Source of the DNA: Pseudoalteromonas translucida KMM 520
GTDB lineage: Bacteria > Pseudomonadota > Gammaproteobacteria > Enterobacterales > Alteromonadaceae
Direction: 5' to 3'
DNA length: 32,000 nt
Assembly: GCF_001465295.1 (NCBI RefSeq)
Contig: NZ_CP011034.1
Span: 1,800,001-1,832,000 of the forward strand
A program made the position numbers and the translations under genes. Below are positions 4,043 to 15,628 of this stretch, piece by piece; position 1 is the stretch's first letter, and every line of letters begins with the position of its first letter. The notes beneath the pieces are model-generated. The model had not been told where the DNA came from. It searched no databases and saw only the letters and a program-made list of their open reading frames with translations.

Positions 4043-4585
4043 TTAGCAAATAAAAACTTGTTTAGTATAAAACTTTTGCCTTAATTGGCCTGCTTCTATA
4101 TGTTCGGGATTAACTTGTATTTCAGCTTGGTTACCTATTAGCTGCAGTAGCATACCTTGTGCTATTTGGCTGTTGCCAAGCCTTGACTTTACCACCACCT
4201 GCTTGCCTATAGCACCTTGTAATCGTGGCTTTGGCAAACTAGGTTTGCTAATTGGTTTTAACCCTTCCGACTTTGCAAATAAGTTTACGCAGTGCTGCTT
4301 AGCCGCAACTATCAAATCGTCTTTACCTTTAACCACGTCAACATTATTTAATAAATGGATAAATGCTTGATTAGCTCTATCAAACTCGGTACACACATCA
4401 GTTAAGCCCCGTATAGCTGCCCATTTACGAATGACTATGTATTTACCCTTTTTAATACGCGCTAAACTAATTGAGGCACCTGTCATTTTGCTATACCACT
4501 CAATACGATAGCAAAATGAGCCTAGGCTATGTAAAAACACCGTTATATTGCCAAATTCCTTTGTGCTTGCTTCAATTAAACTCAT
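4043..4585 (-). CDS. Hypothetical protein, 180 aa, no recognisable domain
   Basis: Long uninterrupted ORF with no signal peptide or TM helix. I recognise no motif. Confidence 0.5.
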   Translation of the reverse strand: MSLIEASTKEFGNITVFLHSLGSFCYRIEWYSKMTGASISLARIKKGKYIVIRKWAAIRGLTDVCTEFDRANQAFIHLLNNVDVVKGKDDLIVAAKQHCVNLFAKSEGLKPISKPSLPKPRLQGAIGKQVVVKSRLGNSQIAQGMLLQLIGNQAEIQVNPEHIEAGQLRQKFYTKQVFIC

Positions 4586-4693
4586 TTTACTTCCCTAACG
4601 TCCTAGTTAAATTGAGTTTATTAGCAAATAGCCTGGTATAAAATCATCCATATTCCTAATCCGCCTAGGAAAATGGCTTAGAAAATACAAGTG

Positions 4694-4766
4694 GATTAAT
4701 TTACGGCACTGTTAATTATTTTATGCCTGTCCCTTTATTTGTCTTGCCTGTCCCTTTATTTGTCTT
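4694..4766 (+). repeat. Copy 2 of the intergenic repeat family, with a perfect 21 bp tandem duplication
   Basis: GATTAATTTACGGCACTGTTAATTATTTTATGCC, followed by tgcctgtccctttatttgtct twice (4724-4744 and 4745-4765). Confidence 0.75.
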
Positions 4767-4816
4767 AAACAACATAATTGTTAGAATGCCCACCTATTTT
4801 CCCATCAAGAGACACA

Positions 4817-5533
4817 ATGGCAAACTTCAATACTCATCTTAATACTGCGCTAATCATCACAGGCTTAGCCTCAGCCACCTTATTATCTGCAGGACATATT
4901 GATTTAAAAGGCGCGCTTTGGTTATGGTTTTTAGGCTCAATCGGCGGTTTATTACCAGACATAGATTCAGATAACTCCACATCACTCGACACTATTTTTA
5001 ATTTATTTGCACTAAGCGCTGTATTACTGGTACTGCATTACATAACCACTGAGCTAATTATTAAAATTAGTTTTATCGAGTTAATTGTAGTGCCCTTATT
5101 AGTTTACGGGTTTATGAAATATATTATTAGACCACTTTTTGAATGGATCACAGTACATAGAGGCAGTTGCCACTCTTTACTATTTATACTGCTATGCGCG
5201 CTATTAACAACACAAGTAACATGGGAACTAAATGATCAATCAACCACACAAGCAGCCACCTTTGCCTGGTTAACGGGTGGGTTTATTTTACTAGGAGGAT
5301 TAATTCATTTATTGCTGGACGAAATTTACAGCGTAGATTTAAGTAATGTAACAATTAAACGCTCTTTCGGAACCGCTCTAAAAATAGCTGACTTCGATAA
5401 TAAATTAATTACGTTGGCGTCGGTTATTGCCATTGCAGGTTTAATTTATGTTGCCCCTCCTACAAAACAAACTATTACAGCGTTAAGTGATTGGTCTCAT
5501 TTTAGATTTCAATCTTTACAAATCAGATTTTAA
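4817..5533 (+). CDS. Membrane-bound metal-dependent hydrolase family protein (YdjM/DUF457-like)
   Basis: MANFNTHLNTALI.. with the LPDIDS motif and multiple TM helices. ATG at 4817 is preferred over the TTG at 4778 used by the ORF track. Confidence 0.6.
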   Translation: MANFNTHLNTALIITGLASATLLSAGHIDLKGALWLWFLGSIGGLLPDIDSDNSTSLDTIFNLFALSAVLLVLHYITTELIIKISFIELIVVPLLVYGFMKYIIRPLFEWITVHRGSCHSLLFILLCALLTTQVTWELNDQSTTQAATFAWLTGGFILLGGLIHLLLDEIYSVDLSNVTIKRSFGTALKIADFDNKLITLASVIAIAGLIYVAPPTKQTITALSDWSHFRFQSLQIRF

Positions 5534-5626: not shown

Positions 5627-5697
5627 TCATGATTTTATTCTTTGTGTTTGTTTCAATTAAACTCATTCCACCTCGGAAAATAGTTTATAAAATACCA

Positions 5698-5746
5698 GGA
5701 TTTAATTTACGGCACTGTTGCTTATTTTATGCCTGTCCTTTTATTT
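5698..5746 (+). repeat. Copy 3 of the intergenic repeat family, truncated where it abuts an IS fragment
   Basis: GATTTAATTTACGGCACTGTTGCTTATTTTATGCCTGTCCTTTTATTTT, then an abrupt switch into IS110-derived sequence at 5747. Confidence 0.7.
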
Positions 5747-5923
5747 TCATCAGATCATTAGCATTTAAGTGGATAAGAATACTATTTAGGTGCTGGAAAA
5801 CACATACGCCCTACGATGAATCAACTTACTTAATCGCATTGAAAAGTAAGGGATCACCGCTGTTAAAATTTGCGGTGGAAAGTGAGCTTTAGTGCTTGCT
5901 GTCCACCTCAGGGCGTGTTGTTA
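5747..5923 (+). pseudogene. Remnant of an IS110-family element: last 146 nt of the transposase gene plus the right end
   Basis: 177 bp identical to 13885-14061 except one synonymous difference (g5886 vs a14024). Encodes ..IRSLAFKWIRILFRCWKTHTPYDESTYLIALKSKGSPLLKFAVESEL. ORF 5572..5892 is a chimera of this fragment with unrelated sequence. Confidence 0.9.
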
Positions 5924-5930
5924 TGTGCAT

Positions 5931-8279
5931 TTACAGTTCGTCATATACAATATTAATGACTTGTTCAGCTAGTGCTCTTGTGTTTTCAAGCGCGTCATCG
6001 CCAATTTCGTGCATAGGTGTGTTTAAAGTATCTCGAATCGCACTCAAGCGAGCTTCAAGTTCAGCAGTGATATAGCCGTTGTCCCTTAAAGCAGCAGTGC
6101 AAACTGACAGGTCTGATTTCGCTTCACCAAGATCAATGAGCTGTTTCTTAAAACGATGACGAATTTCTCCCTCAAAGAAAGGTCGCAAGGTTGTGAGAAT
6201 GTCGTTATTAGTTTCACGATTAACAAAAGCTTTAATTCTGTCAAAAGCAACATCATGCTCTGTAGCCATCATGTCATCAATTTCAACGGCTTCTATCGAG
6301 CAAGTTTCAGCACCATGAACTAATTTTACCGATTTAGCGCACCGCCTGAATTTCTTCACAGCTTTTGCTGCCATTCCTTTATAGTGAGTCGTTAGTACAA
6401 TTTGTTTAATAGTCCGTTGCAGCTCATCCAGTTTATTGAGAATCAGTGCTATTCGCTCATTGTCAAAACTAGTAACAGGATCATCTAGCACTAAAATAGC
6501 CTTAGCTTTCTCCTCTGCTGGAAGAGACATCACCTTAGCTAAAAATATACAAAGTGCTAGCGCTCTGCGGTCTGACTCACTAAATACTGTATTAATTTTA
6601 TCAGCAGAAATGTCCTCACCTTTAAACTTAACACGAAGGTCATAGATAACTTGTCTGCCGCGATTATTAGGTACTTTGATAATCTCAAAGTTACTTGAGC
6701 CAAGCTGACGAAACAGTCCATTTATCAAATCAAAGTAAGTATCTAAATACGCTGTTTGTGATTGTTCGAGCTGCTGCTTTTGTGCTTTATAAGTAGTATC
6801 TATCCCATTAACAGTTGCTAGCTTCTGCCTGTACTGAACACAAAGTGGCTCTAATGCTATCCGCTTTAGCGCCAAATTAGCTTGTGTTTGTTGTTGTGTG
6901 ATTTCTGTCAATTGATGATTCAGATCCACTTCATTAAGTGAGCCTTTATAAGCATTGAAGATAGCGTTAATTTGCTCTGCGACTACCCAATAGTCATAGA
7001 TAGCTTGATTATACGTTGTTGCTGCTGTATTCAGTACATCGAAGGAAACGAGTTGAGCAGGTTCGTAGGGCGTAGTAAACTTTTGCTCTAATCTCGGTAT
7101 CCAGAATTCCGTTGCTTGCTGGCTATTTGCAATAACGGCATCAAAAGAAGCGAGAATAACCTCATGCTTTTGTTCCAATGAAGCAGTTAAAGGCGCTAGA
7201 GCTTGATTGGTTATAATTTGAGGCTCCACATACAGCTCAAACACTTGTTTATTGGCTTGGTGTAGCTGAATAAGGTTTTCACGAGTATTTGGAATACTAA
7301 ATGGCTGACGAAGGCCATTTAAAGTTTGTCTTGTTTCTTTGTTAAATCTATCAAACTCAGCATTAAAAGCTTGCTGGTACGCAGCGATTAGGCCTTGAGC
7401 ATCAGCACTTAAAGCCTGCCCACAGAAAGGACAATCATCTTTTATTTGTGCGATACCTTGGCTAGCCCAACCTTTAAAAGTAGCTGAGTTGTTCACATGA
7501 TTGCTCATGTGATTTTGCAGTGACACCAATGAATCTTGATGAACATTTTGAAGGCTAGATGCTAGTACAGCATTAATTGAATCAATTGCTTGGGCAAAGT
7601 TGACCTGTGCACCAACCGCACTTAGAACATTACGATGTTTGATTTTTTCAATATTCTGAATGGTAGTTGTGACTTGCAGTTTTGATGCTTCATGTGCCGC
7701 CACGTTAGTTTCTAACTGTTCTTTAGTCTCTGAAGGCAAAGCAGAGTTAACATACGCAGGAACACTACCCACAGCGTGAGTTGTAAATTGCCCTTCAATA
7801 CCAGAAAGAAGTCTTTTTTCATCACGAAGATTGTTATTCATCTCAGCTAAAGCCGCAAACAAGGCGGTGTTACTCTCACCAAGAATAAAACTAGTCATGT
7901 TTTCAGAGTTTGGCCGCTCTTGCTTCTGACCAGTGATTACATTTCTATGTATAAAGCTTTGGTCAAAAACATACAAACCTGAACAATCAGGAGTTTTTAC
8001 TTGCCACTGGCCGTTTTCGAATTTAGATGTAACATTACCTGTCGCAGTACCGAACATGAATTCAACTTTAGGTGGTTTAGTTGGGTCATTTGGTATGCTT
8101 TTTCGGTGCATTATAAAATCAGGAGCATCTTCTGCTAGTGAATGAATAATATCACAGAGGGTACTCTTACCATTTCTGTTCTCACCATATATAACGGTCA
8201 CATCACCAAGATCTATTCCACCTGCAACGGTTTTGGTGAAATTTCCAATACCTTGTATTAGCTTTATTTTTTTTAACAT
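5931..8279 (-). CDS. rloC: RloC/PrrC-like ABC-type ATPase (AAA_13 family) with coiled-coil zinc hook and C-terminal putative anticodon-nuclease region
   Basis: Walker A GENRNGKST. Long Q/L-rich coiled-coil insert containing CPFCGQ (CxxC, nt 7422-7433). Signature-like FSESDRRAL, Walker B ILVLDDPVTSFD, H-loop LTTHY. C-terminal LRPFFEGEIRHRF ... LNTPMHE resembles the R-x3-E...H arrangement of PrrC/RloC ACNase domains. Confidence 0.6.
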   Translation of the reverse strand: MLKKIKLIQGIGNFTKTVAGGIDLGDVTVIYGENRNGKSTLCDIIHSLAEDAPDFIMHRKSIPNDPTKPPKVEFMFGTATGNVTSKFENGQWQVKTPDCSGLYVFDQSFIHRNVITGQKQERPNSENMTSFILGESNTALFAALAEMNNNLRDEKRLLSGIEGQFTTHAVGSVPAYVNSALPSETKEQLETNVAAHEASKLQVTTTIQNIEKIKHRNVLSAVGAQVNFAQAIDSINAVLASSLQNVHQDSLVSLQNHMSNHVNNSATFKGWASQGIAQIKDDCPFCGQALSADAQGLIAAYQQAFNAEFDRFNKETRQTLNGLRQPFSIPNTRENLIQLHQANKQVFELYVEPQIITNQALAPLTASLEQKHEVILASFDAVIANSQQATEFWIPRLEQKFTTPYEPAQLVSFDVLNTAATTYNQAIYDYWVVAEQINAIFNAYKGSLNEVDLNHQLTEITQQQTQANLALKRIALEPLCVQYRQKLATVNGIDTTYKAQKQQLEQSQTAYLDTYFDLINGLFRQLGSSNFEIIKVPNNRGRQVIYDLRVKFKGEDISADKINTVFSESDRRALALCIFLAKVMSLPAEEKAKAILVLDDPVTSFDNERIALILNKLDELQRTIKQIVLTTHYKGMAAKAVKKFRRCAKSVKLVHGAETCSIEAVEIDDMMATEHDVAFDRIKAFVNRETNNDILTTLRPFFEGEIRHRFKKQLIDLGEAKSDLSVCTAALRDNGYITAELEARLSAIRDTLNTPMHEIGDDALENTRALAEQVINIVYDEL

Positions 8280-8380
8280 CTAACACTTATCCTTAAGCCA
8301 TCAATGTAAACTTATTGATAGATAGACCAGTTAATTTATTTTAATCTGACCGAATTTACTGTGAGCGCGAAGTAGCGAAA

Positions 8381-8432
8381 GCACATAACGCCGCGTTCAC
8401 CGGCTTGTCCGGTGCAACGCTTTGTTAGGGGC
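8381..8432 (-). other. attC recombination site (short type) ending the Thoeris cassette
   Basis: Minus strand reads GCCCCTAAC-AAA-GCGTTGCACCGG-ACAAG-CCGGTGAACGC-GGC-GTTATGTGC. TAAC/GTTA cores flank an 11-12 bp stem with one extra base in the 5' arm, and there is no T tract. The inverse core GCCCCTAAC is complementary to the cassette start GTTAGGGGG at 9883-9891. Confidence 0.6.
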
Positions 8433-8434
8433 AT

Positions 8435-9271
8435 TTAAACCCCATTCCTTGCTGATTTAATGTCGAGAAGATTTATCTGTTTTATCTTGTCCTTATGAAT
8501 GACAATTGTAAGCCTTGCTGGATACTTGAATCGCATTTCACTAATACGAAACGTCCACAACATTATTTTCAACAGGTCTTCATCGCTAATAGTTTTGTGT
8601 CCCTTTATTCGAGTTATACCCGATCCAAATATGGGAGTCGACACACTCTCCTGTGCGTATACGTTATTTACCTTGTCCCAAAAATTTATTAGAAACTCAA
8701 GGTATTCAGGCATCGTAATTTCCGCCTTATTGCTTTCATCGAATTTTGTAAATGCAGTTAATAGATAGCTTTTGTAAACACAAACAGTCCCTATCTGATG
8801 ACGAACTTTCTTCCCTGATTTTCTCTCGATGTTGCTTTCAAGTATTTCGCTAGTTTCAAAAGCATAATCACCAATGTAGCGATCTAGCTCTGATACAGAT
8901 ACGTCAAGATGATTTTTGATAAATATGCCATTTAGCGAACTCTCTGCGATTATTTTATTATCTACTAAGGTATCAAAATATTCGTTAAAGGCGATTGCCT
9001 TTAATCCCGGTTCTAAGAAAATATCACCGACTTTTATCGTTACTTCACTTCCTTCAATGTCAATTTCAATTTTATTTAGATTGTTAGACCATACCCAAAT
9101 CATCAAATAGATTACTAATAATGCACCTATAAAAATCCATCCATAAGTGGTTTTGCATTCTTCTGGTATACCAACAAACAGAACAACCAATGACAAAGTC
9201 GCGCTTATCCCTGAGGTGATTTTTAAAAAGTTATCAATCACCCTCCTGTCAAACAGACTAACCTTACTCAT
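8435..9271 (-). CDS. thsA: Thoeris type II effector-like protein ThsA: two N-terminal TM helices plus a C-terminal Macro-like domain
   Basis: TM helices ITSGISATLSLVVLFVGIP and GWIFIGALLVIYLMIWVWS. The soluble domain begins VTIKVGDIFLEPGLKAIAFNEYFDT, reminiscent of the macro-domain GDIT..AIVNAAN strand-loop. Lies immediately downstream of a TIR-like gene in the same unit. Confidence 0.6.
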   Translation of the reverse strand: MSKVSLFDRRVIDNFLKITSGISATLSLVVLFVGIPEECKTTYGWIFIGALLVIYLMIWVWSNNLNKIEIDIEGSEVTIKVGDIFLEPGLKAIAFNEYFDTLVDNKIIAESSLNGIFIKNHLDVSVSELDRYIGDYAFETSEILESNIERKSGKKVRHQIGTVCVYKSYLLTAFTKFDESNKAEITMPEYLEFLINFWDKVNNVYAQESVSTPIFGSGITRIKGHKTISDEDLLKIMLWTFRISEMRFKYPARLTIVIHKDKIKQINLLDIKSARNGV

Positions 9272-9354
9272 AGTTTATACCAATATAAACCCGCTGCCCT
9301 CTTCGTCGCCAACATGAAGTCACTATCCTTTAAGGCTGCCTCTATGATTGCTTT

Positions 9355-9831
9355 TTACATTGGAATATGAAGAGTAGGAACCTTGTACATCGAATCTCTG
9401 AAGATAGGTAATTTGTTCCACAGGTTTTTTACTGACTGCTTCAACGATCCATTCAGCAGAAGACTTTCTTTCGAGTCATAATCTGGATAAATAACAATAA
9501 CAGGAAGTCCTTGATCGTTGATGCCATAATCAATCTCTTCTCGTAGTGCTCTTGAGCTAACTGTATTAGAGCTTAAAAATAATACAATATTTTTTGAGCT
9601 TCTAAGGCGTTCTCTCAGTCGTGGTTTCAACGTGGTTTCCCAAGCGCTATTGTCACGGACGTTATATGTCTTGCCATGTGAATCATTAAAAGGAAATGAT
9701 GCGTCCTTCCCTTTCCATGCTCGCAACATGTTGTAGTAGCAAAAATCTTTTGTAGCATGTGCACCTAGTGCGCTTGCGTTAAACGGCTCTGCAACATAAA
9801 AGGCTGCGTAATTTCCATTTCGATATGCCAT
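9355..9831 (-). CDS. thsB: TIR-like domain protein (DUF1863/MTH538 TIR-like), Thoeris ThsB
   Basis: 158 aa. NGNYAAFYV.. start, FPFNDSH...VRDNSAWETTLKPRLRERLRSSKNIVLFLSSNTVSSRALREEIDYG is the typical TIR-like (PF08937-type) pattern. GGAGG RBS 4 nt upstream of the ATG. Confidence 0.7.
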   Translation of the reverse strand: MAYRNGNYAAFYVAEPFNASALGAHATKDFCYYNMLRAWKGKDASFPFNDSHGKTYNVRDNSAWETTLKPRLRERLRSSKNIVLFLSSNTVSSRALREEIDYGINDQGLPVIVIYPDYDSKESLLLNGSLKQSVKNLWNKLPIFRDSMYKVPTLHIPM

Positions 9832-9882
9832 ATTTCCTCCACGTAATTAAGAATTTTGATAAATGCCTAGTTTGACTGCTGG

Positions 9883-9990
9883 CCCCCTAACGCTTAAATA
9901 ACAGGCTAAGTAATGGTTGGCTAAAATTGTGTAGCGAAGCGAAACGTAGCCAACTGTTACGTGTCCTTGTTTATTTTCTTGTTAGCTTAC
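9883..9990 (-). other. attC recombination site (about 108 bp) ending the HEPN cassette
   Basis: Minus strand reads GTAAGCTAAC-AAGAAAATAAACAAGGACACGTAACAGTTGGCTA...TAGCCAACCATTACTTAGCCTGTTATTTAAGC-GTTAGGGGG. It is a long imperfect palindrome with extra bases in the 5' arm. The HEPN gene stop codon lies inside the inverse core. It shares CTAACGC, AATGGTTGGCTA, GCCAACTGTT and GTTAGC blocks with the site at 12436-12523. Confidence 0.75.
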
Positions 9991-10569
9991 ATTTGTGTAT
10001 TGAGGTCTACCAATTAAATCAATGTCTATATCTTTTAGCATTGCTCCATTAGTCCATATTAATTCTAGTTGTCGAGCCGCCTCTTTATATCGGGCAGCGC
10101 TATCAATATCAGAATATGCAGCTATTTTCATGTCAGGAAATAACCTAGGAAGTTTATCATTAGGAGTATCATGTGGAACTTCATGAGTAGCTGTCGTTTT
10201 ATGAGGTTTTGCATGAGCTAACCAATTCCGGAATTTGATCATTTCTTGTATAGTCTGCCAAGGCTGTGCTGAAAAATCAGCATCAACTCCTAATTCTTTG
10301 GAAACAAGAATGATTTTTCCAATTATGGAAGTAGACTCAAAATTCTTCCACTGACTTTTAAATAGCTGTGACCCATAGACATTCGCAGTAGCTTCTACGG
10401 AAAAAACAGAAAAAATCATTGATGGAATTATCCATCTAAATTTATGGCCTGGTTCTTCTTTTTCCGCCATATTGAACTGGTTACTTGCAATAGATTGAAG
10501 CGGTATTATTTCAGGGCACTCAACAGTTATTTTTACTTTTTTGGTACGACTCAAAGGTAAACTCTCCAT
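9982..10569 (-). CDS. Stand-alone HEPN-domain protein (predicted RNase), 195 aa
   Basis: Rx4H motif R114-N-W-L-A-H119 (nt 10213-10230) within a predicted helical protein. An upstream helix ..FSVFSVEATANVYG.. is typical of HEPN helix 1. Met34 is an alternative start. Confidence 0.55.
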   Translation of the reverse strand: MESLPLSRTKKVKITVECPEIIPLQSIASNQFNMAEKEEPGHKFRWIIPSMIFSVFSVEATANVYGSQLFKSQWKNFESTSIIGKIILVSKELGVDADFSAQPWQTIQEMIKFRNWLAHAKPHKTTATHEVPHDTPNDKLPRLFPDMKIAAYSDIDSAARYKEAARQLELIWTNGAMLKDIDIDLIGRPQYTNVS

Positions 10570-10580
10570 GTAAGCTAACG

Positions 10581-12435
10581 AGCCTGTAGATTAACTCGTT
10601 TTTTTATTTGTTTTTATTGATAAACAAACCATAGCTGAGTTCCTATTTTGGTTCAATCGATTACTTATTTTATGCAGAATATAAAGTGGGAGTTTGATGT
10701 TGTTTTAATTGGCATTTTGGAAGCTATTACTGGTGTTTAAGTGGCTTTATTTTAGGTTAAAAGGGCTTCCCCTTCCTAATGCATCGTGTTTTGCAGCTTT
10801 TCTATATTATGAACAAGGCAATACAGTTGCCATTGTGCATTCACTTTCATTTGACCCCGTAAGGTCAACTTATTCATGCCTTTATTCACTGTAATGTTGC
10901 CAAACACCGGTTCAATACAACCAAGTCGTTTACTGTATTGTCGTCGACCTATCGGGCTGTCTATTTTTACTTTCATTTTGTCTACATAGCTCAGCTTTTT
11001 GCGTGATTCATTATTGATAAACTGCACTTGTCGCCCTGTTTTAATCGGCGGCTTTCGCATGCATTGTTGCTGTAGCGGACACGTTTTACAGTCTTTTAAG
11101 TAACCGCAGAACCGGGTGTATTTTTGGTTATGGCTGTTTACATTTATACCGCTTCGCCACATGGCATTGCCTGCGGGGCAGCGGCATGTTTGGGTTGCTT
11201 CATCATAATGAAAATCATCTGAGGTAAATAGTCGTGGTTTGCCTTTACTGCGTTTTAGTCTGCGCTTTTCTTGCTCCGTTTCGTATGTTTCGCTGGCTTT
11301 AAACAGCGGGTTTCTTTTTCTAAATTGGTTATCCGCAATGTAGGTATCGAACCCGCTTTTCGCCATAAATTCAAGATTCACTTCGCTGTTAAACCCACTG
11401 TCTGCAGTGAATTTAATGGTGGGTTCATCTGCCCGTTTTTCTGTATTGAGTTTAGCAAGCTGCTGTTTTAATTGTGCAATGGCTGGCTGTAAGGTTTGTT
11501 GTTCACCCACTGAACCCCACGCTTGAGCTTGCAAGATAATTTGGTGTTTATCGTCATTTATCGCGATGCCGTTGTAGCCTTGAATTGTGCCTTTTGAGGT
11601 GGTCATTTTCGCGCTGTCGGGGTCGGTGATATTACTTTTAACTGGCTTGCCTTTACTGCCTGTTTTTTCTTTGTGAGTGGCTAAGAACTCGGTGATTTTG
11701 TCTGCACTTTTATCCAGCTTTTCTTTTTGTTTTAAGTCCTGAGTTATCAACTCTTCGCCCAGTTCATCTTGTGATTGGTGGCGCTCAATAATACGTTTGC
11801 TTGCGCGTTCTAGTTTTGCTTTTTTGCGACCTAACTCATCGAATGTGCCGCTCCACTCTTTACTCGCATTGGACTTTAATTTACATCCATCAATGGCAAA
11901 CATATTGCGGCCTATCAAGCCTTCCTCATCACATATCATCAGTACTTGCGTAAAAAGCGGCTCAATCTGTTCATGCATTTTAGCCACAAAACCCGCTATA
12001 GATGTGTAATGCGGCTGGATATCCCCCGATACACTCATAAATAAAATATTATTCTCGCAAGCCTTTGCAATCCGACGGCTACTAATTAATCCATGTGCAT
12101 AACCCAGTAAAATAATCTTTAACATCACCGATGGCGGATACGCCGCCGCGCCCGTTTTGTCGTTGTTATACCACGCATCAAAGCCCGATAAATCGAGCTT
12201 GTTTTCGACAATATAACAAAGAGCATATTCAAATGTGCCAGGCAAAATTTGCTCAGCAAAATTGATAGGAATGAATTTATTTTGACAGGACAAGTCAGGC
12301 TTGTAGTTGGCCATAACGATTTACCGTGGGTGAATAATATCTATTAGATCACAGCGAACGGATGGGTTCAAGGTTAAAAAGCAATCAATTCGAAATAGTA
12401 AGATACGTTCCTAAAAAGAGTAATTCTACAGCCTC
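10581..12435 (-). mobile_element. IS1182-family insertion sequence (about 1.85 kb) inserted in the GTTA core of an attC site
   Basis: Terminal inverted repeats (G)AGCCTGTAGATTAACTCGTTTTT (left) vs GAGGCTGTAGAATTACTCTTTTT (reverse complement of the right end). Flanked by direct repeat AAC(G) at 10577-10580 and 12436-12439. Removing it restores CTAACGCCTTGCTAAGCGG.., which parallels the attC at 9883-9990. Confidence 0.8.
10776..12314 (-). CDS. IS1182-family DDE transposase
   Basis: 512 aa. N-terminal ..AYPPSVMLKIILLGYAHGLISSRRIAKACENNILFMSVSG.. (the transposase InsH/DUF772-like signature of IS1182/IS5-type enzymes). C-terminal Cys-rich region and DDE region. Confidence 0.85.
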   Translation of the reverse strand: MANYKPDLSCQNKFIPINFAEQILPGTFEYALCYIVENKLDLSGFDAWYNNDKTGAAAYPPSVMLKIILLGYAHGLISSRRIAKACENNILFMSVSGDIQPHYTSIAGFVAKMHEQIEPLFTQVLMICDEEGLIGRNMFAIDGCKLKSNASKEWSGTFDELGRKKAKLERASKRIIERHQSQDELGEELITQDLKQKEKLDKSADKITEFLATHKEKTGSKGKPVKSNITDPDSAKMTTSKGTIQGYNGIAINDDKHQIILQAQAWGSVGEQQTLQPAIAQLKQQLAKLNTEKRADEPTIKFTADSGFNSEVNLEFMAKSGFDTYIADNQFRKRNPLFKASETYETEQEKRRLKRSKGKPRLFTSDDFHYDEATQTCRCPAGNAMWRSGINVNSHNQKYTRFCGYLKDCKTCPLQQQCMRKPPIKTGRQVQFINNESRKKLSYVDKMKVKIDSPIGRRQYSKRLGCIEPVFGNITVNKGMNKLTLRGQMKVNAQWQLYCLVHNIEKLQNTMH

Positions 12436-12523
12436 AACGCCTTGCTAAGCGGATAAAAATGGTTGGCTATAATCGCGCAGCGATGGCCAACTGTTTTTAT
12501 TCCGTTTAAGCAACTTATAGTTA
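12436..12523 (-). other. Body of the attC site of the protease cassette, separated from both of its core sites by IS insertions
   Basis: Imperfect palindrome CTAACGCCTTGCTAAGCGGATAAAAATGGTTGGC...GCCAACTGTTTTTATTCCGTTTAAGCAACTTATAGTTA. Its GTTA core end is at 10571-10580 across the IS1182. Its inverse core (GAGTGCTAAC, 14058-14067) lies across the IS110 element. Confidence 0.7.
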
Positions 12524-12761
12524 CTCCGTTCCATTAATTAATGTATTTACCTATCTCATTAATACATGGAATATGCTTCTGTTGATCACGAATATTTGAG
12601 CGGAAACAATCAATGTTTGTAACAAGACTTTCGGATCAACAGGAGTAATTTGTTTCAATACGCATACTCAGGGATTGTCGTAATGCCGACTATCTATAAG
12701 ACTTGCGAGAAACACTATTAGCCTCTATTTATTCTTTCACTTTACCTCTAGGAGGCCCAAA
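12524..12761 (+). ncRNA. Candidate IS110 bridge (seeker) RNA encoded in the left non-coding end
   Basis: 238 nt non-coding leader upstream of the recombinase gene. Hairpin CCATTAATTAATG/CATTAATACATGG (12531-12569). CTCAGGGATTGTCGTAA (12667-12683) resembles the element right end CTCAGGGCGTGTTGTTA (14045-14061). CTATAAG (12694-12700) is the reverse complement of the target flank CTTATAG (12514-12520). There is no direct evidence of transcription. Confidence 0.35.
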
Positions 12762-14030
12762 ATGGAAGCCTTTAACGTCTCAGGTTTTGCTGCCCTTATC
12801 GGGATCGATTGGGCCGACCGTAAACATGATATTTGTGAAATAAACCGCGACACAAACACACAACATTTAAGTGTGATTTCCTCTGAACCTAAGTCAATTA
12901 ATGCATGGGCGCTTGAGTTAAAACAACGCTACAACGGCAGACCCGTTGCTGTCGCGTGTGAGCTAAAAAAAGGTCCACTTATATATGCACTCAGTAAATT
13001 TAAGCACATTATATTATTTGTGATTAACCCATCAAGTGTCGCCAAATACCGTGCAGCATTTTCGCACAGCGGGGCTAAAGATGATCCTACTGATGCGATT
13101 ATTCAAGTTGAAATTCTACAACTTCACATGGATAAATTAACGGTTATTAGACCTGACACAGAAGAAGTTAGGTGCCTTGCACAGCTTGTCGAATACAGAC
13201 GTAAATTAGTACAAGATCGTGTTAATTTAACCAATAAAATAGCCACAACGCTAAAAAATTATTACCCCCACGTGATTGATTGGTTTAAAGAAAAGGACAC
13301 TCAAATATTCTGTGACTTTTTACTGCGTTGGCCATCTCTTACTCACGCTAAAAAAGCGAGAAAGCAAACACTACTCGACTTCTTTAATCAACATAACTCC
13401 CGCTACCCACTCGTTAATGAAAAGCGGATAAAAGAAATAAAGGATGCTGAAATTCTCACCGATGATATGGCCGTGATCACGCCAAACTTATTGCTTATTG
13501 AATGCCTCGTTCCTCAACTCAAACATCTAATGCAGGCAATAACCCGATTTGATAACGAAATTAAAACGCTTTATAAGCAACATTCAGATCGCGCTATTTT
13601 TGATAGTTTACCAGGTGCAGGACCACAATTAGCGCCTCGGTTATTAGCCGCTATGGGGTCAAATCGTGACCGTTATAAGTGCGCTGCTGACATACAAAAA
13701 TACGCAGGCATTGCCCCTGTTACCGAGCGCAGTGGCAAGAAGGAATGGATACACTGGCGATATTCGTGCACTAAATTTTTAAGGCAAACATTTGTTGAAT
13801 GGGCAGGATTATCTGTGCGTTATTCATTTTGGGCAAAAGCATATTATCGGCAGCAAGAGGCCAAAGGAAAACCCCATAATACCATCATCAGATCATTAGC
13901 ATTTAAGTGGATAAGAATACTATTTAGGTGCTGGAAAACACATACGCCCTACGATGAATCAACTTACTTAATCGCATTGAAAAGTAAGGGATCACCGCTG
14001 TTAAAATTTGCGGTGGAAAGTGAACTTTAG
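12762..14030 (+). CDS. IS110-family DEDD transposase/recombinase
   Basis: 422 aa. N-terminal RuvC-like DEDD domain (ALIGIDWADRKHDICE). C-terminal Transposase_20 region (LPGAGPQLAPRLLAAMG ... YAGIAPVTERSGKK). GGAGG RBS upstream. Confidence 0.9.
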   Translation: MEAFNVSGFAALIGIDWADRKHDICEINRDTNTQHLSVISSEPKSINAWALELKQRYNGRPVAVACELKKGPLIYALSKFKHIILFVINPSSVAKYRAAFSHSGAKDDPTDAIIQVEILQLHMDKLTVIRPDTEEVRCLAQLVEYRRKLVQDRVNLTNKIATTLKNYYPHVIDWFKEKDTQIFCDFLLRWPSLTHAKKARKQTLLDFFNQHNSRYPLVNEKRIKEIKDAEILTDDMAVITPNLLLIECLVPQLKHLMQAITRFDNEIKTLYKQHSDRAIFDSLPGAGPQLAPRLLAAMGSNRDRYKCAADIQKYAGIAPVTERSGKKEWIHWRYSCTKFLRQTFVEWAGLSVRYSFWAKAYYRQQEAKGKPHNTIIRSLAFKWIRILFRCWKTHTPYDESTYLIALKSKGSPLLKFAVESEL

Positions 14031-14058
14031 TGCTTGCTGTCCACCTCAGGGCGTGTTG

Positions 14059-14751
14059 TTAGCACTCTTCAATTTCACGAATAAACTTAATAAGATCTTT
14101 AGCGGAATGCGCTAAACCCAATTCAACTATGCGATAAATACTCTCAGCAAATTTATCTCCGTTATCTTCAACATCTGTAAAGGAATGAACTTCTATCGAT
14201 GATTCATGATTACTGAATAACATTCCAGCTAGCTTACCTGTTTGCTCGCTAACCAAAGGACTACCGCTAAAGCCCTTTAAGGAAGGGAAAGATAATTCTG
14301 TAGTTGTATGAGCTAATGGGTGGTTAGATGTCTCCGAGTTACTAACTACATATCCTTTTAGCATTCGTGCATTAATATTAACAACCTTATTTTTTTGCCC
14401 AATATTATTAAAGCCAAAAGCTCTTACATCATGACCTGGTAAGTACTCTGTGTCATTAAGTTCAAAACACTTGTAGCTTTGGTGTTTGATAAAGTTTCCA
14501 ATGGCAAAATCATATTTAGGATGTGATTTTATGTTGTAGATAACATCAATGTCACCACTAATTAAATTTTTACCAAGTAGAACCTCGCCTTCTTGAACCA
14601 TTTCAATTATATGCCTACACGTTGCAATTTTCCCTTCGTTACCGATGAAAAAAGCAACACCAGCATAGCGGTCTATATCAAAATGAAGAGTACTCCCTTC
14701 ATGTCTTCTTTTAGCGATGAGTAATGTGATTTGATATTCGCCGTAGTTCAT
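14059..14751 (-). CDS. Cytoplasmic trypsin-fold (S1-like) serine protease, 230 aa
   Basis: Catalytic triad in canonical order: H47 (IATCRHII), D81 (KYDFAIG), S162 (LKGFSGSPL). No signal peptide. GGAG RBS 7 nt upstream. The stop codon lies inside the attC inverse core TGCTAAC. Confidence 0.65.
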   Translation of the reverse strand: MNYGEYQITLLIAKRRHEGSTLHFDIDRYAGVAFFIGNEGKIATCRHIIEMVQEGEVLLGKNLISGDIDVIYNIKSHPKYDFAIGNFIKHQSYKCFELNDTEYLPGHDVRAFGFNNIGQKNKVVNINARMLKGYVVSNSETSNHPLAHTTTELSFPSLKGFSGSPLVSEQTGKLAGMLFSNHESSIEVHSFTDVEDNGDKFAESIYRIVELGLAHSAKDLIKFIREIEEC

Positions 14752-14760
14752 TAATACTCC

Positions 14761-14876
14761 AGAGTGCTAACAGCTTATTGAACACCACTTTGGGAGGTTA
14801 TAACACCCCAAAACGGCGCATATTACATTGCTCGATAACCAAACCAAACAACTTACTTATAAACAAGTAGTTACAA
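14761..14876 (-). other. attC-like region upstream of the protease cassette; GTTA core certain, outer boundary uncertain
   Basis: Minus strand ..AAGCTGTTAGCACTCT: the GTTAGCACTCT core is the exact reverse complement of the inverse core at 14058-14068. Upstream there are imperfect palindromes (TTGGGGTGTTATAACCTCCCAA) and a possible inverse core TTGTAAC at 14870-14876. Confidence 0.4.
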
Positions 14877-15016: not shown

Positions 15017-15628
15017 TTAAAACCTTGAATCATTTTCACAAGGTATCCCGTCGTTATCGCCATCCATTTTTGTATTCGGGCAATTATTTATAAAAAATAC
15101 AGCTTCGGCTCGTGAGGTCATTTGGCTGCAGTGTTGTCTGCCATCGCAGCTAAAGTTTTGTGTGTTTTTAGGAGTAACTATCTTCGGATATTTTTCAGCA
15201 AAGGTGGTTAAGTCGGCATTGGTAATAACGGGGGTGTTGTTTTTATTGCCTGCATGAGTGTTTGCGAAGTACCTATTGTATGCGCTAAAACCTATGCTTA
15301 ATATAATTACCAGCGCAACAAGGTTAGCTAAAGTGCTCGACTTCTTTTTTGCTTTACTCATTTTAAAAGGTGTATTAAAAGCAGCTGTTTTTTCTAGTTT
15401 GCTTTCTACTTTACTTGCGATTACGCCTTCAATACGGCAATTTACGGCTTTGCTTTTACCATTGGGATCGGTGGCAACCTCAAAATAGATGGTGTCGCCT
15501 ACTTTGGGTTTGCGGCTCATGTGTTTAAGCGAAGATATGTGTATAAAGGTGTCGTGTGCAACGCTGCTAGATTTAATAAAGCCATAGCCTCGGTTGTCGT
15601 TCCACGACATTAACAATCCTTTGTTCAT
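15017..15628 (-). CDS. Cold-shock-domain / TM / Excalibur calcium-binding domain protein
   Basis: N-terminal CSD-like WNDNRGYGFIKS...FIHISSL...GDTIYFEV. Central TM helix LANLVALVIILSIGFSAY. C-terminal Excalibur motif CPNTKMDGDNDGIPCE. Confidence 0.7.
   Translation of the reverse strand: MNKGLLMSWNDNRGYGFIKSSSVAHDTFIHISSLKHMSRKPKVGDTIYFEVATDPNGKSKAVNCRIEGVIASKVESKLEKTAAFNTPFKMSKAKKKSSTLANLVALVIILSIGFSAYNRYFANTHAGNKNNTPVITNADLTTFAEKYPKIVTPKNTQNFSCDGRQHCSQMTSRAEAVFFINNCPNTKMDGDNDGIPCENDSRF

Follow-up and report, generated by a model that had tools for sequence, protein, structure and literature searches.

A predicted cytoplasmic trypsin-fold protease packaged as a solo integron cassette in Pseudoalteromonas translucida KMM 520

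A 230-amino-acid (aa) serine protease of the trypsin fold is encoded as a one-gene integron cassette in Pseudoalteromonas translucida KMM 520, within a 32,000-nucleotide (nt) stretch of contig NZ_CP011034.1 (positions 1,800,001 to 1,832,000), here called the window. The gene lies on the minus strand, with a cassette boundary upstream of its start codon and its own attC recombination site at its stop codon. This attC is interrupted by two insertion sequences (IS), beyond which three further cassettes follow. The features of the protease cassette, in window coordinates, are as follows.

14059 to 14751, minus strand: protease coding sequence, 230 aa, chymotrypsin fold, triad H47/D81/S162 (open reading frame [ORF], profile, alignment, model, and ratio of nonsynonymous to synonymous substitution rates [dN/dS])
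14757 to 14760, minus strand: Shine-Dalgarno GGAG inside the cassette, 5 nt before the ATG (sequence; same motif in homologous cassettes)
14765 to 14771, minus strand: left cassette boundary, R'-type core G/TTAGCA, the cassette beginning at TT, 14770 (boundary conserved in homologous loci)
14056 to 14064, minus strand: 5' part of the attC that belongs to the cassette, with the R'' core TGCTAAC, which shares bases with the TAA stop codon, followed by AA (homologous loci)
12436 to 12516, minus strand: 3' part of the same attC, comprising L'', the loop, L', and the GTT of R' (aligns with the attC after the protease in loci L001 and L009)

On the gene strand, the sequence runs ...AAGCT G/TTAGCA CTCT GGAG TATTA ATG ... 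GAG TGC TAA CAA, the slash marking the crossover. Among the homologous loci, at least 10 independent groups with different neighbours (from Vibrio, Psychromonas, Shewanella, and marine metagenomes) had G/TTAGCA(C) 14 to 35 nt before the start codon and a ..GCTAAC core at or just past the stop codon. Homology to the cassette of Shewanella youngdeokensis DAU334 (L009) stops at 14771. The uninterrupted copies in L001 and L009 carry a typical 90-nt attC after the stop codon; compared with them, the homology of the window ends at 14056 and picks up again at 12516 to 12436. After both IS were removed in silico, the bottom strand of the attC folded into a canonical hairpin (-26.5 kcal/mol, z = -7.0, 0 of 200 shuffles) in which the R and L boxes were paired, with 2-nt spacers and single bulged bases. 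The protease gene is a genuine one-gene integron cassette. The stand-alone cassette with its own internal ribosome-binding site, which had been proposed in the original prediction from the sequence alone, was thus confirmed by the boundary, the core at the stop codon, the hairpin, and the GGAG ahead of the ATG.

The cassette ORF (14056 to 14771) was 97.8% identical at the DNA level to that of S. youngdeokensis DAU334 (L009, 5981 to 6696). At the sequence level, this identity between Pseudoalteromonas and Shewanella indicates a recent transfer between families. The attC after the L009 copy (6695 to 6780) was only about 77% identical to that of the window, with the central loop differing most.

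The protein matched the complete Pfam Trypsin_2 profile (PF13365, positions 1 to 144 of 144) at 45.9 bits, against a cut-off of 27.6. The motifs CRH47, YD81F, and GFS162GSP were all found, giving a triad in the order His-Asp-Ser with a GxSG nucleophile motif and the oxyanion-hole Gly. Across 29 homologues with 35 to 92% identity (alignment A1), H47, D81, S162, G160, and G163 were invariant; across 126 distant cluster representatives (alignment A2), H47, D81, and G163 were invariant and S162 was at least 90% conserved. The profile built from A1 placed the three residues on the catalytic His, Asp, and Ser of Staphylococcus Jep.

No hydrophobic N-terminus or transmembrane segment was detected in the protease; Kyte-Doolittle values peaked at 0.71 over 19-residue windows and, within the first 40 residues, at 1.0 over 12-residue windows. 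The N-terminus, MNYG.Y.IPL, is conserved across the family. Among 159 near-full-length family sequences, which were mostly about 220 to 260 aa long, just 2 had a borderline hydrophobic N-terminus. The ORF begins at the first start codon past an in-frame stop, and a longer ORF is impossible because the cassette boundary sits 20 nt upstream of the ATG. Comparison with an 86% identical copy from TARA gave a dN/dS of 0.04, and comparison with the 98% identical copy in Shewanella gave 0.17. Purifying selection acts on the gene, which is not in decay. Judged from sequence and model, the protein is an intact, cytoplasmic, single-domain serine endopeptidase of the PA clan with a complete triad and predicted activity. 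Here too the original prediction, of a protein with its triad in chymotrypsin order and neither signal peptide nor transmembrane helix, held, and the N-terminus forms a beta-strand in the model described below.

An AlphaFold2 model of the protease was built with alignment A1 (pLDDT 92, pTM 0.84). It was all-beta with a C-terminal helix and formed a single chymotrypsin-fold domain throughout; the model and Foldseek together identified the double beta-barrel. A Foldseek search of the PDB returned 535 matches at E ≤ 0.001, and all 50 of the 50 listed were chymotrypsin-fold proteases. The best matches listed were the protease domains of DegS, HtrA1, DegP, MucD, AlgW, and Deg1 (E about 4e-8). These HtrA-type matches had TMq values of 0.6 to 0.68 and 13 to 16% identity over about 217 to 272 columns, gaps included, for a query of 230 residues. 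In the viral structure database BFVD, solely generic viral trypsin-like and 3C-like proteases were matched. Three elongated beta-hairpins stood out in the model (residues 7 to 35, 108 to 139, and 174 to 216). The C-terminal segment is strongly conserved within the family (N181, E183, S184, E203, E210, G212, H215, and D219), and the last 50 residues had no match in any PDB chain, all profile alignments stopping near position 180.

The stretches of about 45 aa before and about 50 aa after the catalytic core had been taken for extensions that could serve as the regulatory or sensing part. This did not hold. In chymotrypsin, the catalytic residues are His57 and Ser195 in a numbering of 245 residues; a His at position 47 and 68 residues beyond the Ser are ordinary dimensions for this fold, so the two stretches are normal parts of it and not an appended module. 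A sensor domain in these stretches was ruled out, since the AlphaFold2 model and the Foldseek alignments show one fold in one domain.

The best structural match, over nearly the whole length, was to the HtrA/DegS/DegP proteases (MEROPS S1C). Common to both are the His-Asp-Ser order, the GxSGxP nucleophile motif, and the absence of the zymogen-type Asp194. Unlike HtrA, the protease has no PDZ domain (no PDZ match was found, and the chain ends at residue 230 with the terminal helix) and neither a signal peptide nor a membrane anchor. It is also cassette-borne and predicted to be cytoplasmic, whereas HtrA is a core envelope gene. The low identity, the three elongated hairpins, and the unmatched C-terminal 50 residues further separate the two. 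By sequence profile, the best PDB matches were instead the staphylococcal S1B enzymes (Jep, Spl, and the glutamyl endopeptidase V8), with Jep reaching an E value of 1.4e-11 with the family profile. These are similar in size (about 205 to 220 aa); in contrast to the cassette protease, they are secreted and carry signal peptides and propeptides, and the Jep-type match stops about 15 residues beyond the catalytic Ser.

An exhaustive profile search recovered 2,937 cluster representatives at E ≤ 0.001, of which 621 also passed E ≤ 1e-10 and 71 passed E ≤ 1e-30. The best 150 matches were mostly about 220 to 260 aa long and aligned over most of their length, and by these sequences the family appears to be a large set of stand-alone proteases. 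The protease had no match in NCBIfam or PHROGs, and no locus with a homologue was found in IMG/VR. A phage or plasmid origin was supported neither by tblastn nor by the PHROG or IMG/VR searches.

Neighbouring genes were surveyed at 42 homologue-bearing loci, of which about 20 are independent, by clustering ORFs of at least 60 aa with BLASTP. The only families common to independent loci were the protease itself and tyrosine recombinases. Because about 20 independent loci share no neighbour, the protease needs no conserved partner and is truly solo, as its lack of a partner gene in the window had first suggested. A 346-aa gene that follows the protease in TARA contigs was rejected as a partner, since an attC lies between the two and the arrangement occurs in one population only (L001 to L004 and L018); its product had no convincing family match.

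IntI-like recombinases lie upstream of the arrays at four homologous loci (L008, L012, L023, and L029). A Vibrio sp. homologue sits in a superintegron-type array, and the S. youngdeokensis DAU334 homologue in an array with SLFN_AlbA_2 and GNAT cassettes. HEPN cassettes are also among the neighbours of homologues, and GNAT, NUDIX, and glyoxalase genes occur beside several others. The distant members (20 to 27% identity) lie in variable regions, next to type I restriction-modification fragments, IS elements, and SLFN_AlbA_2, as well as a trio of HTH, kinase, and TPR proteins, Mrr_cat, DUF4268, and DUF6602. DUF6602 is also the domain found in Damona, whose single-gene cassette from the V. cholerae integron is a validated defence system (10.1101/2024.07.02.601686). 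PADLOC, run on 126 neighbour ORFs that were pooled and not counted per protein, gave scattered matches, including NucC and PD-DExK models, together with many helicase false positives from core DEAD-box genes.

In Shewanella hafniensis (L010, 5975 to 6760), a lone protease cassette with its own short attC lies between core genes (an ABC-F ATPase and pirin), and it looks inserted at a secondary site outside any array. Locus L041 carries two paralogous solo proteases a few genes apart (4652 to 5371 and 6746 to 7474). At L014 (164 to 1081), a neighbouring cassette encodes a second Trypsin_2 protein, which has a SEC-C motif.

The attC of the protease cassette is split by IS of two different kinds, as listed below with a truncated second copy of one of them.

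12517 to 14055, plus strand: IS110-family IS, 1,539 bp, inside the attC after TAACAA; DEDD transposase at 12762 to 14030 (domains and full-length copies)
10580 to 12435, minus strand: second IS, IS1182-like, with a DUF772 and DDE_Tnp_1_6 transposase at 10776 to 12314 (23-nt terminal inverted repeats)
5747 to 5923, plus strand: truncated second IS110 copy, right end, 99% identical, at the TAACAA of the attC of the AAA_13 cassette (low-coordinate edge of the array)

The IS110-family element carries the DEDD_Tnp_IS110 and Transposase_20 domains, and copies with 94 to 95% identity that match exactly positions 1 to 1539 were found in Pseudoalteromonas records. One of them, in Pseudoalteromonas sp. 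HL-AS1 (L043, 3001 to 4539), sits at the same attC position, CATAACAA^AAGTTGC. Counting both window copies and the HL-AS1 copy, the element was thus found inserted at TAACAA^AAGTTGC three independent times. Elements of the IS1111-attC group, the attC-targeting members of IS110, have a DEDD transposase and insert at a fixed position and orientation in attC sites. The present element appears to be attC-specific and IS1111-attC-like, and to circulate in Pseudoalteromonas.

The IS1182-like element sits exactly at the G/TT crossover of the R' core, as judged from the GTT that flanks both of its ends. In Psychromonas sp. L1A2 (L008, about 7960 to 7985), the GTTAGC core of the homologous protease cassette is directly adjoined by a related terminal repeat, ..AAATTCTACAGCCTC, which, together with the position in the window, hints that the IS1182-like family targets attC cores as well.

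The double hit on the attC noted in the original prediction was substantiated, and the immobilisation of the cassette that had been deduced from it is reasonable, since 1.5 kb of inserted DNA divides the attC hairpin, its R' core is broken, there is no upstream attC, and the window contains no intI. The locus is a clean example of two different IS homing to integron attC sites and freezing a cassette array.

No tyrosine recombinase was found in the annotated part of the window, and because no integrase is encoded there, the array resembles a cluster of attC sites lacking integron-integrase (CALIN). In gene order, the protease is followed by a 195-aa protein, a Thoeris II pair, and a 782-aa AAA_13 ATPase.

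9982 to 10569, minus strand: cassette encoding a 195-aa helical protein, probably HEPN-like (AlphaFold2, Foldseek, Rx4H motif)
9887 to 9984, minus strand: attC of the 195-aa cassette (homology and hairpin fold)
8435 to 9831, minus strand: Thoeris II two-gene cassette, with the TIR protein ThsB at 9355 to 9831 (158 aa) and the Macro-domain ThsA at 8435 to 9271 (278 aa)
8370 to 8424, minus strand: short attC of the Thoeris cassette
5931 to 8279, minus strand: cassette encoding the 782-aa AAA_13 ATPase, PADLOC candidate PDC-S06, full length, E value of 2e-176

The 195-aa protein had no Pfam, PADLOC, or PHROG match. Its AlphaFold2 model was a helical bundle (pLDDT 87), and its Foldseek matches were weak (E ≥ 0.18), yet many of them, including the top two, were HEPN proteins. 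With its invariant R114-N-x-L-x-H119 (Rx4H) motif, it is probably a HEPN-like single-gene cassette. The complete Thoeris type II pair is carried as one cassette between two attC sites (8370 to 9984). From sequence matches and models, all three cassettes beside that of the protease are predicted to be defence systems or defence-like.

One flank of the array holds the core genes for an aldehyde dehydrogenase, a two-component system, and ydjM; the other holds a gene combining a cold-shock domain (CSD) with an Excalibur domain, gloA, DUF302, htpX, and the bio operon. The BioB sequence assigns the host to the Pseudoalteromonas nigrifaciens/haloplanktis group. The CSD-Excalibur protein (203 aa, 15017 to 15628, minus strand) is encoded directly upstream of the array, has the cold-shock domain at its N-terminus and the Excalibur domain at its C-terminus, and showed weak matches to the retron Se72 effector and the PADLOC CSD_V model. 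In addition, 25-nt direct repeats of TTTTATGCCTGTCCCTTTATTTGTC, some of them in tandem, occur ahead of the response-regulator gene and of ydjM and also at the array edge (1607 to 1679, 4696 to 4764, and 5702 to 5749). A duplicated gene start, ATGAGTTTAATTGAA.., is present at 4559 to 4593 and 5640 to 5674. The repeats and the duplicated start could be regulator binding sites or remnants of rearrangement.

Cytoplasmic, leaderless trypsin-fold domains are known from phage defence in retron type XI, LmuA-protease, trypsin-HamA and the Avs2 trypsin-metallo-beta-lactamase (MBL) module, and the PADLOC candidate PDC-M35A (10.1101/2025.09.03.673762; 10.64898/2026.08.25.746987; PMC9226505). There, a sensor (a reverse transcriptase [RT], an SMC ATPase, a helicase, or a STAND NTPase) is either fused to the protease or encoded along with it, and usually there is also a dedicated substrate such as an MBL nuclease; in the characterised systems, the trypsin-like domain is activated by sensor-driven release or oligomerisation (10.1101/2025.09.03.673762; 10.64898/2026.08.25.746987). 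The protease studied here differs in being the entire cassette, with no conserved neighbour.

The window protease matched three PADLOC families, weakly and over the core only: RT-Protease_XI (E value of 1.6e-8), PDC-M35A (2.5e-7), and LmuA (2e-4). Among 126 family members, matches were obtained to RT-Protease_XI for 92 (best 2.4e-17), to PDC-M35A for 54, to LmuA for 47 (7e-17), and to trypsin-HamA for 19. On sequence grounds, these matches are best read as relatedness to the protease domains of defence effectors and not as membership in their systems. The retron XI match covers positions 347 to 500 of a 510-position profile, and the protease has no room for an RT. The trypsin-MBL modules of Hachiman, Avs, and UG9 need a fused sensor, in contrast to the single domain found here, and no MBL or Lactamase_B gene was present in the window island or in the homologous locus listings. 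For Lamassu, the LmuA match spans 31 to 164 of 425 positions, and both the C-terminal domain and an adjacent LmuB are missing; the AAA_13 gene, 6 kb away, forms a cassette of its own, fits PDC-S06 best, and is missing at other loci. The PDC-M35 match was partial (28.7 bits), and no PDC-M35 component occurs among the window neighbours. Since the defining partners (RT, LmuB, HamB, STAND NTPase, and MBL nuclease) are absent, the protease belongs to no named system, which agrees with what had been expected of it.

In format, the closest precedents are the cassettes Damona, Esos, Taranis, and Toutatis of the V. cholerae sedentary chromosomal integron (SCI), each a small promoterless one-gene cassette in a chromosomal array; unlike the present cassette, none of the 16 systems described there is a protease. 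Integron cassettes are 2.2-fold enriched in defence systems, and these are small, with one or two genes. A single-protein precedent for protease-based immunity is Lit of the Escherichia coli element e14, which is activated by a phage peptide and cleaves the host factor EF-Tu in abortive infection. Lit is a zinc metalloprotease and has no sequence or fold relationship to the 230-aa protease.

What can be said of the protein itself is that it is a trypsin-fold enzyme of the defence-effector type, pared down to the domain alone and carried as a solo cassette. Our tentative reading, to which we would give somewhat below an even chance, is that it is a conflict gene, most likely anti-phage, that works alone. 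The case for defence is circumstantial, resting on the neighbouring defence cassettes and on distant similarity to the protease domains of defence effectors.

Several observations weigh against this reading. Guilt by association is weak in cassette arrays, as most cassettes are non-defence. The PADLOC matches are at the domain level and not stronger than the generic Pfam Trypsin_2 match, and every characterised trypsin-like domain in defence comes with a sensor and a dedicated substrate (the MBL nuclease, for example), either by fusion or as partners, both of which are missing here. No characterised family member was found, and no protease is mentioned in those parts of the integron-defence literature that were searched; the main texts searched on systems from chromosomal and mobile integrons likewise describe none. 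With tblastn, no homologue was detected in 50,697 phage or 72,556 plasmid records. Expression of the cassette in this genome is also uncertain, because the promoter scan gave no convincing promoter-like site upstream of the gene and a terminator-like hairpin follows the gene upstream of it.

A protease residing in the cytoplasm would have to be latent or highly specific. The protease domains of HtrA and DegS are allosterically gated. Taken with the soluble, cytoplasmic nature of the protein and its kinship to defence domains, such gating would suggest a latent enzyme held inactive until switched on by a phage-made protein, or one that cleaves that protein directly. The three elongated hairpins and the conserved C-terminal hairpin (N181, E183, S184, E203, E210, and H215) may serve in self-association or substrate capture. 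In place of a sensor, the hairpins and the conserved C-terminal face could bind a phage protein or restrict cleavage to a phage substrate. As an outcome, either phage maturation would be blocked or the infected cell would stop growing. A bolder version of this proposal, which we consider possible and yet rather unlikely, is that the 230-aa, sensor-less, single-domain protease is a complete anti-phage system that senses through its own hairpin extensions or through substrate recognition, and that its family is a widespread class of solo proteases, borne on integrons and defence islands, that has been overlooked by the catalogues.

The main rival is an accessory protease outside defence, which would cleave host proteins or peptides in regulation, stress quality control, or the degradation of toxins or regulators and would be niche-adaptive. 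Most cassettes are indeed not defence genes, and "a peptidase" is among the many stress and interaction functions for which cassette pools show enrichment (PMC10661359). The lone S. hafniensis cassette between core genes fits such a role, as do the GNAT, NUDIX, and glyoxalase neighbours in several arrays and the closeness of the structure to the HtrA quality-control proteases. However, HtrA-type quality control acts in the envelope, and the protease has no export signal and no PDZ or other substrate-selection domain. Its patchy distribution by horizontal transfer, with 97.8% nt identity across Pseudoalteromonas and Shewanella, is what conflict genes typically show, and the distant members lie in contexts like defence islands. 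We regard this explanation as doubtful while giving it a real share of the probability.

A toxin-like or addiction element that stabilises the array, or an effector against competitors, is improbable. Many toxin-antitoxin cassettes occur in chromosomal integrons, and protease toxins are known, such as IetS of IetAS. Against this, neither the cassette nor its conserved surroundings contain an antitoxin or immunity gene, the protease has no secretion or delivery domain, and a lone constitutive toxin would not be maintainable under the strong purifying selection seen.

Nor does the protease appear to be one half of a multi-gene system whose partner (the HEPN-like 195-aa protein, Thoeris, or the AAA_13 ATPase as a Lamassu-like LmuB) was split off by IS. 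All the genes are co-oriented, both IS lie exactly between the protease and the rest, and weak LmuB matches in the AAA_13 protein accompany the weak LmuA matches in the protease. However, every one of these genes or pairs carries an attC of its own, the roughly 20 independent loci never show any of these proteins repeatedly beside the protease, the LmuA match is confined to the protease domain, and the ATPase is a full-length PDC-S06 single-gene candidate. A partner separated by IS was rejected on these grounds, and the neighbour survey has largely refuted the idea, which we consider very improbable.

Finally, the idea that the start was mis-called and that the enzyme is an ordinary S1 protease of the secreted or periplasmic kind has almost no chance of being correct: NCBI names the homologues "S1 family peptidase" and the closest PDB sequences are secreted or periplasmic, but the in-frame stop and the cassette boundary that precede the ATG, the conserved N-terminus, the mostly similar family lengths with next to no hydrophobic N-termini, and the place of residues 7 to 35 as beta-strands of the modelled fold exclude it.

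To our knowledge, protease-based bacterial immunity always pairs the protease with a separate sensor (STAND, helicase, RT, SAVED, or TPR). If the cassette does protect against phage, sensing and execution could be combined in one protease domain of roughly 25 kDa. It would then rank as the smallest protease-based immune module that acts autonomously, could serve as a very compact tool, and would earn a place in the defence catalogues. Even if the protease is non-defensive, its family is large, with 621 cluster representatives at E < 1e-10.

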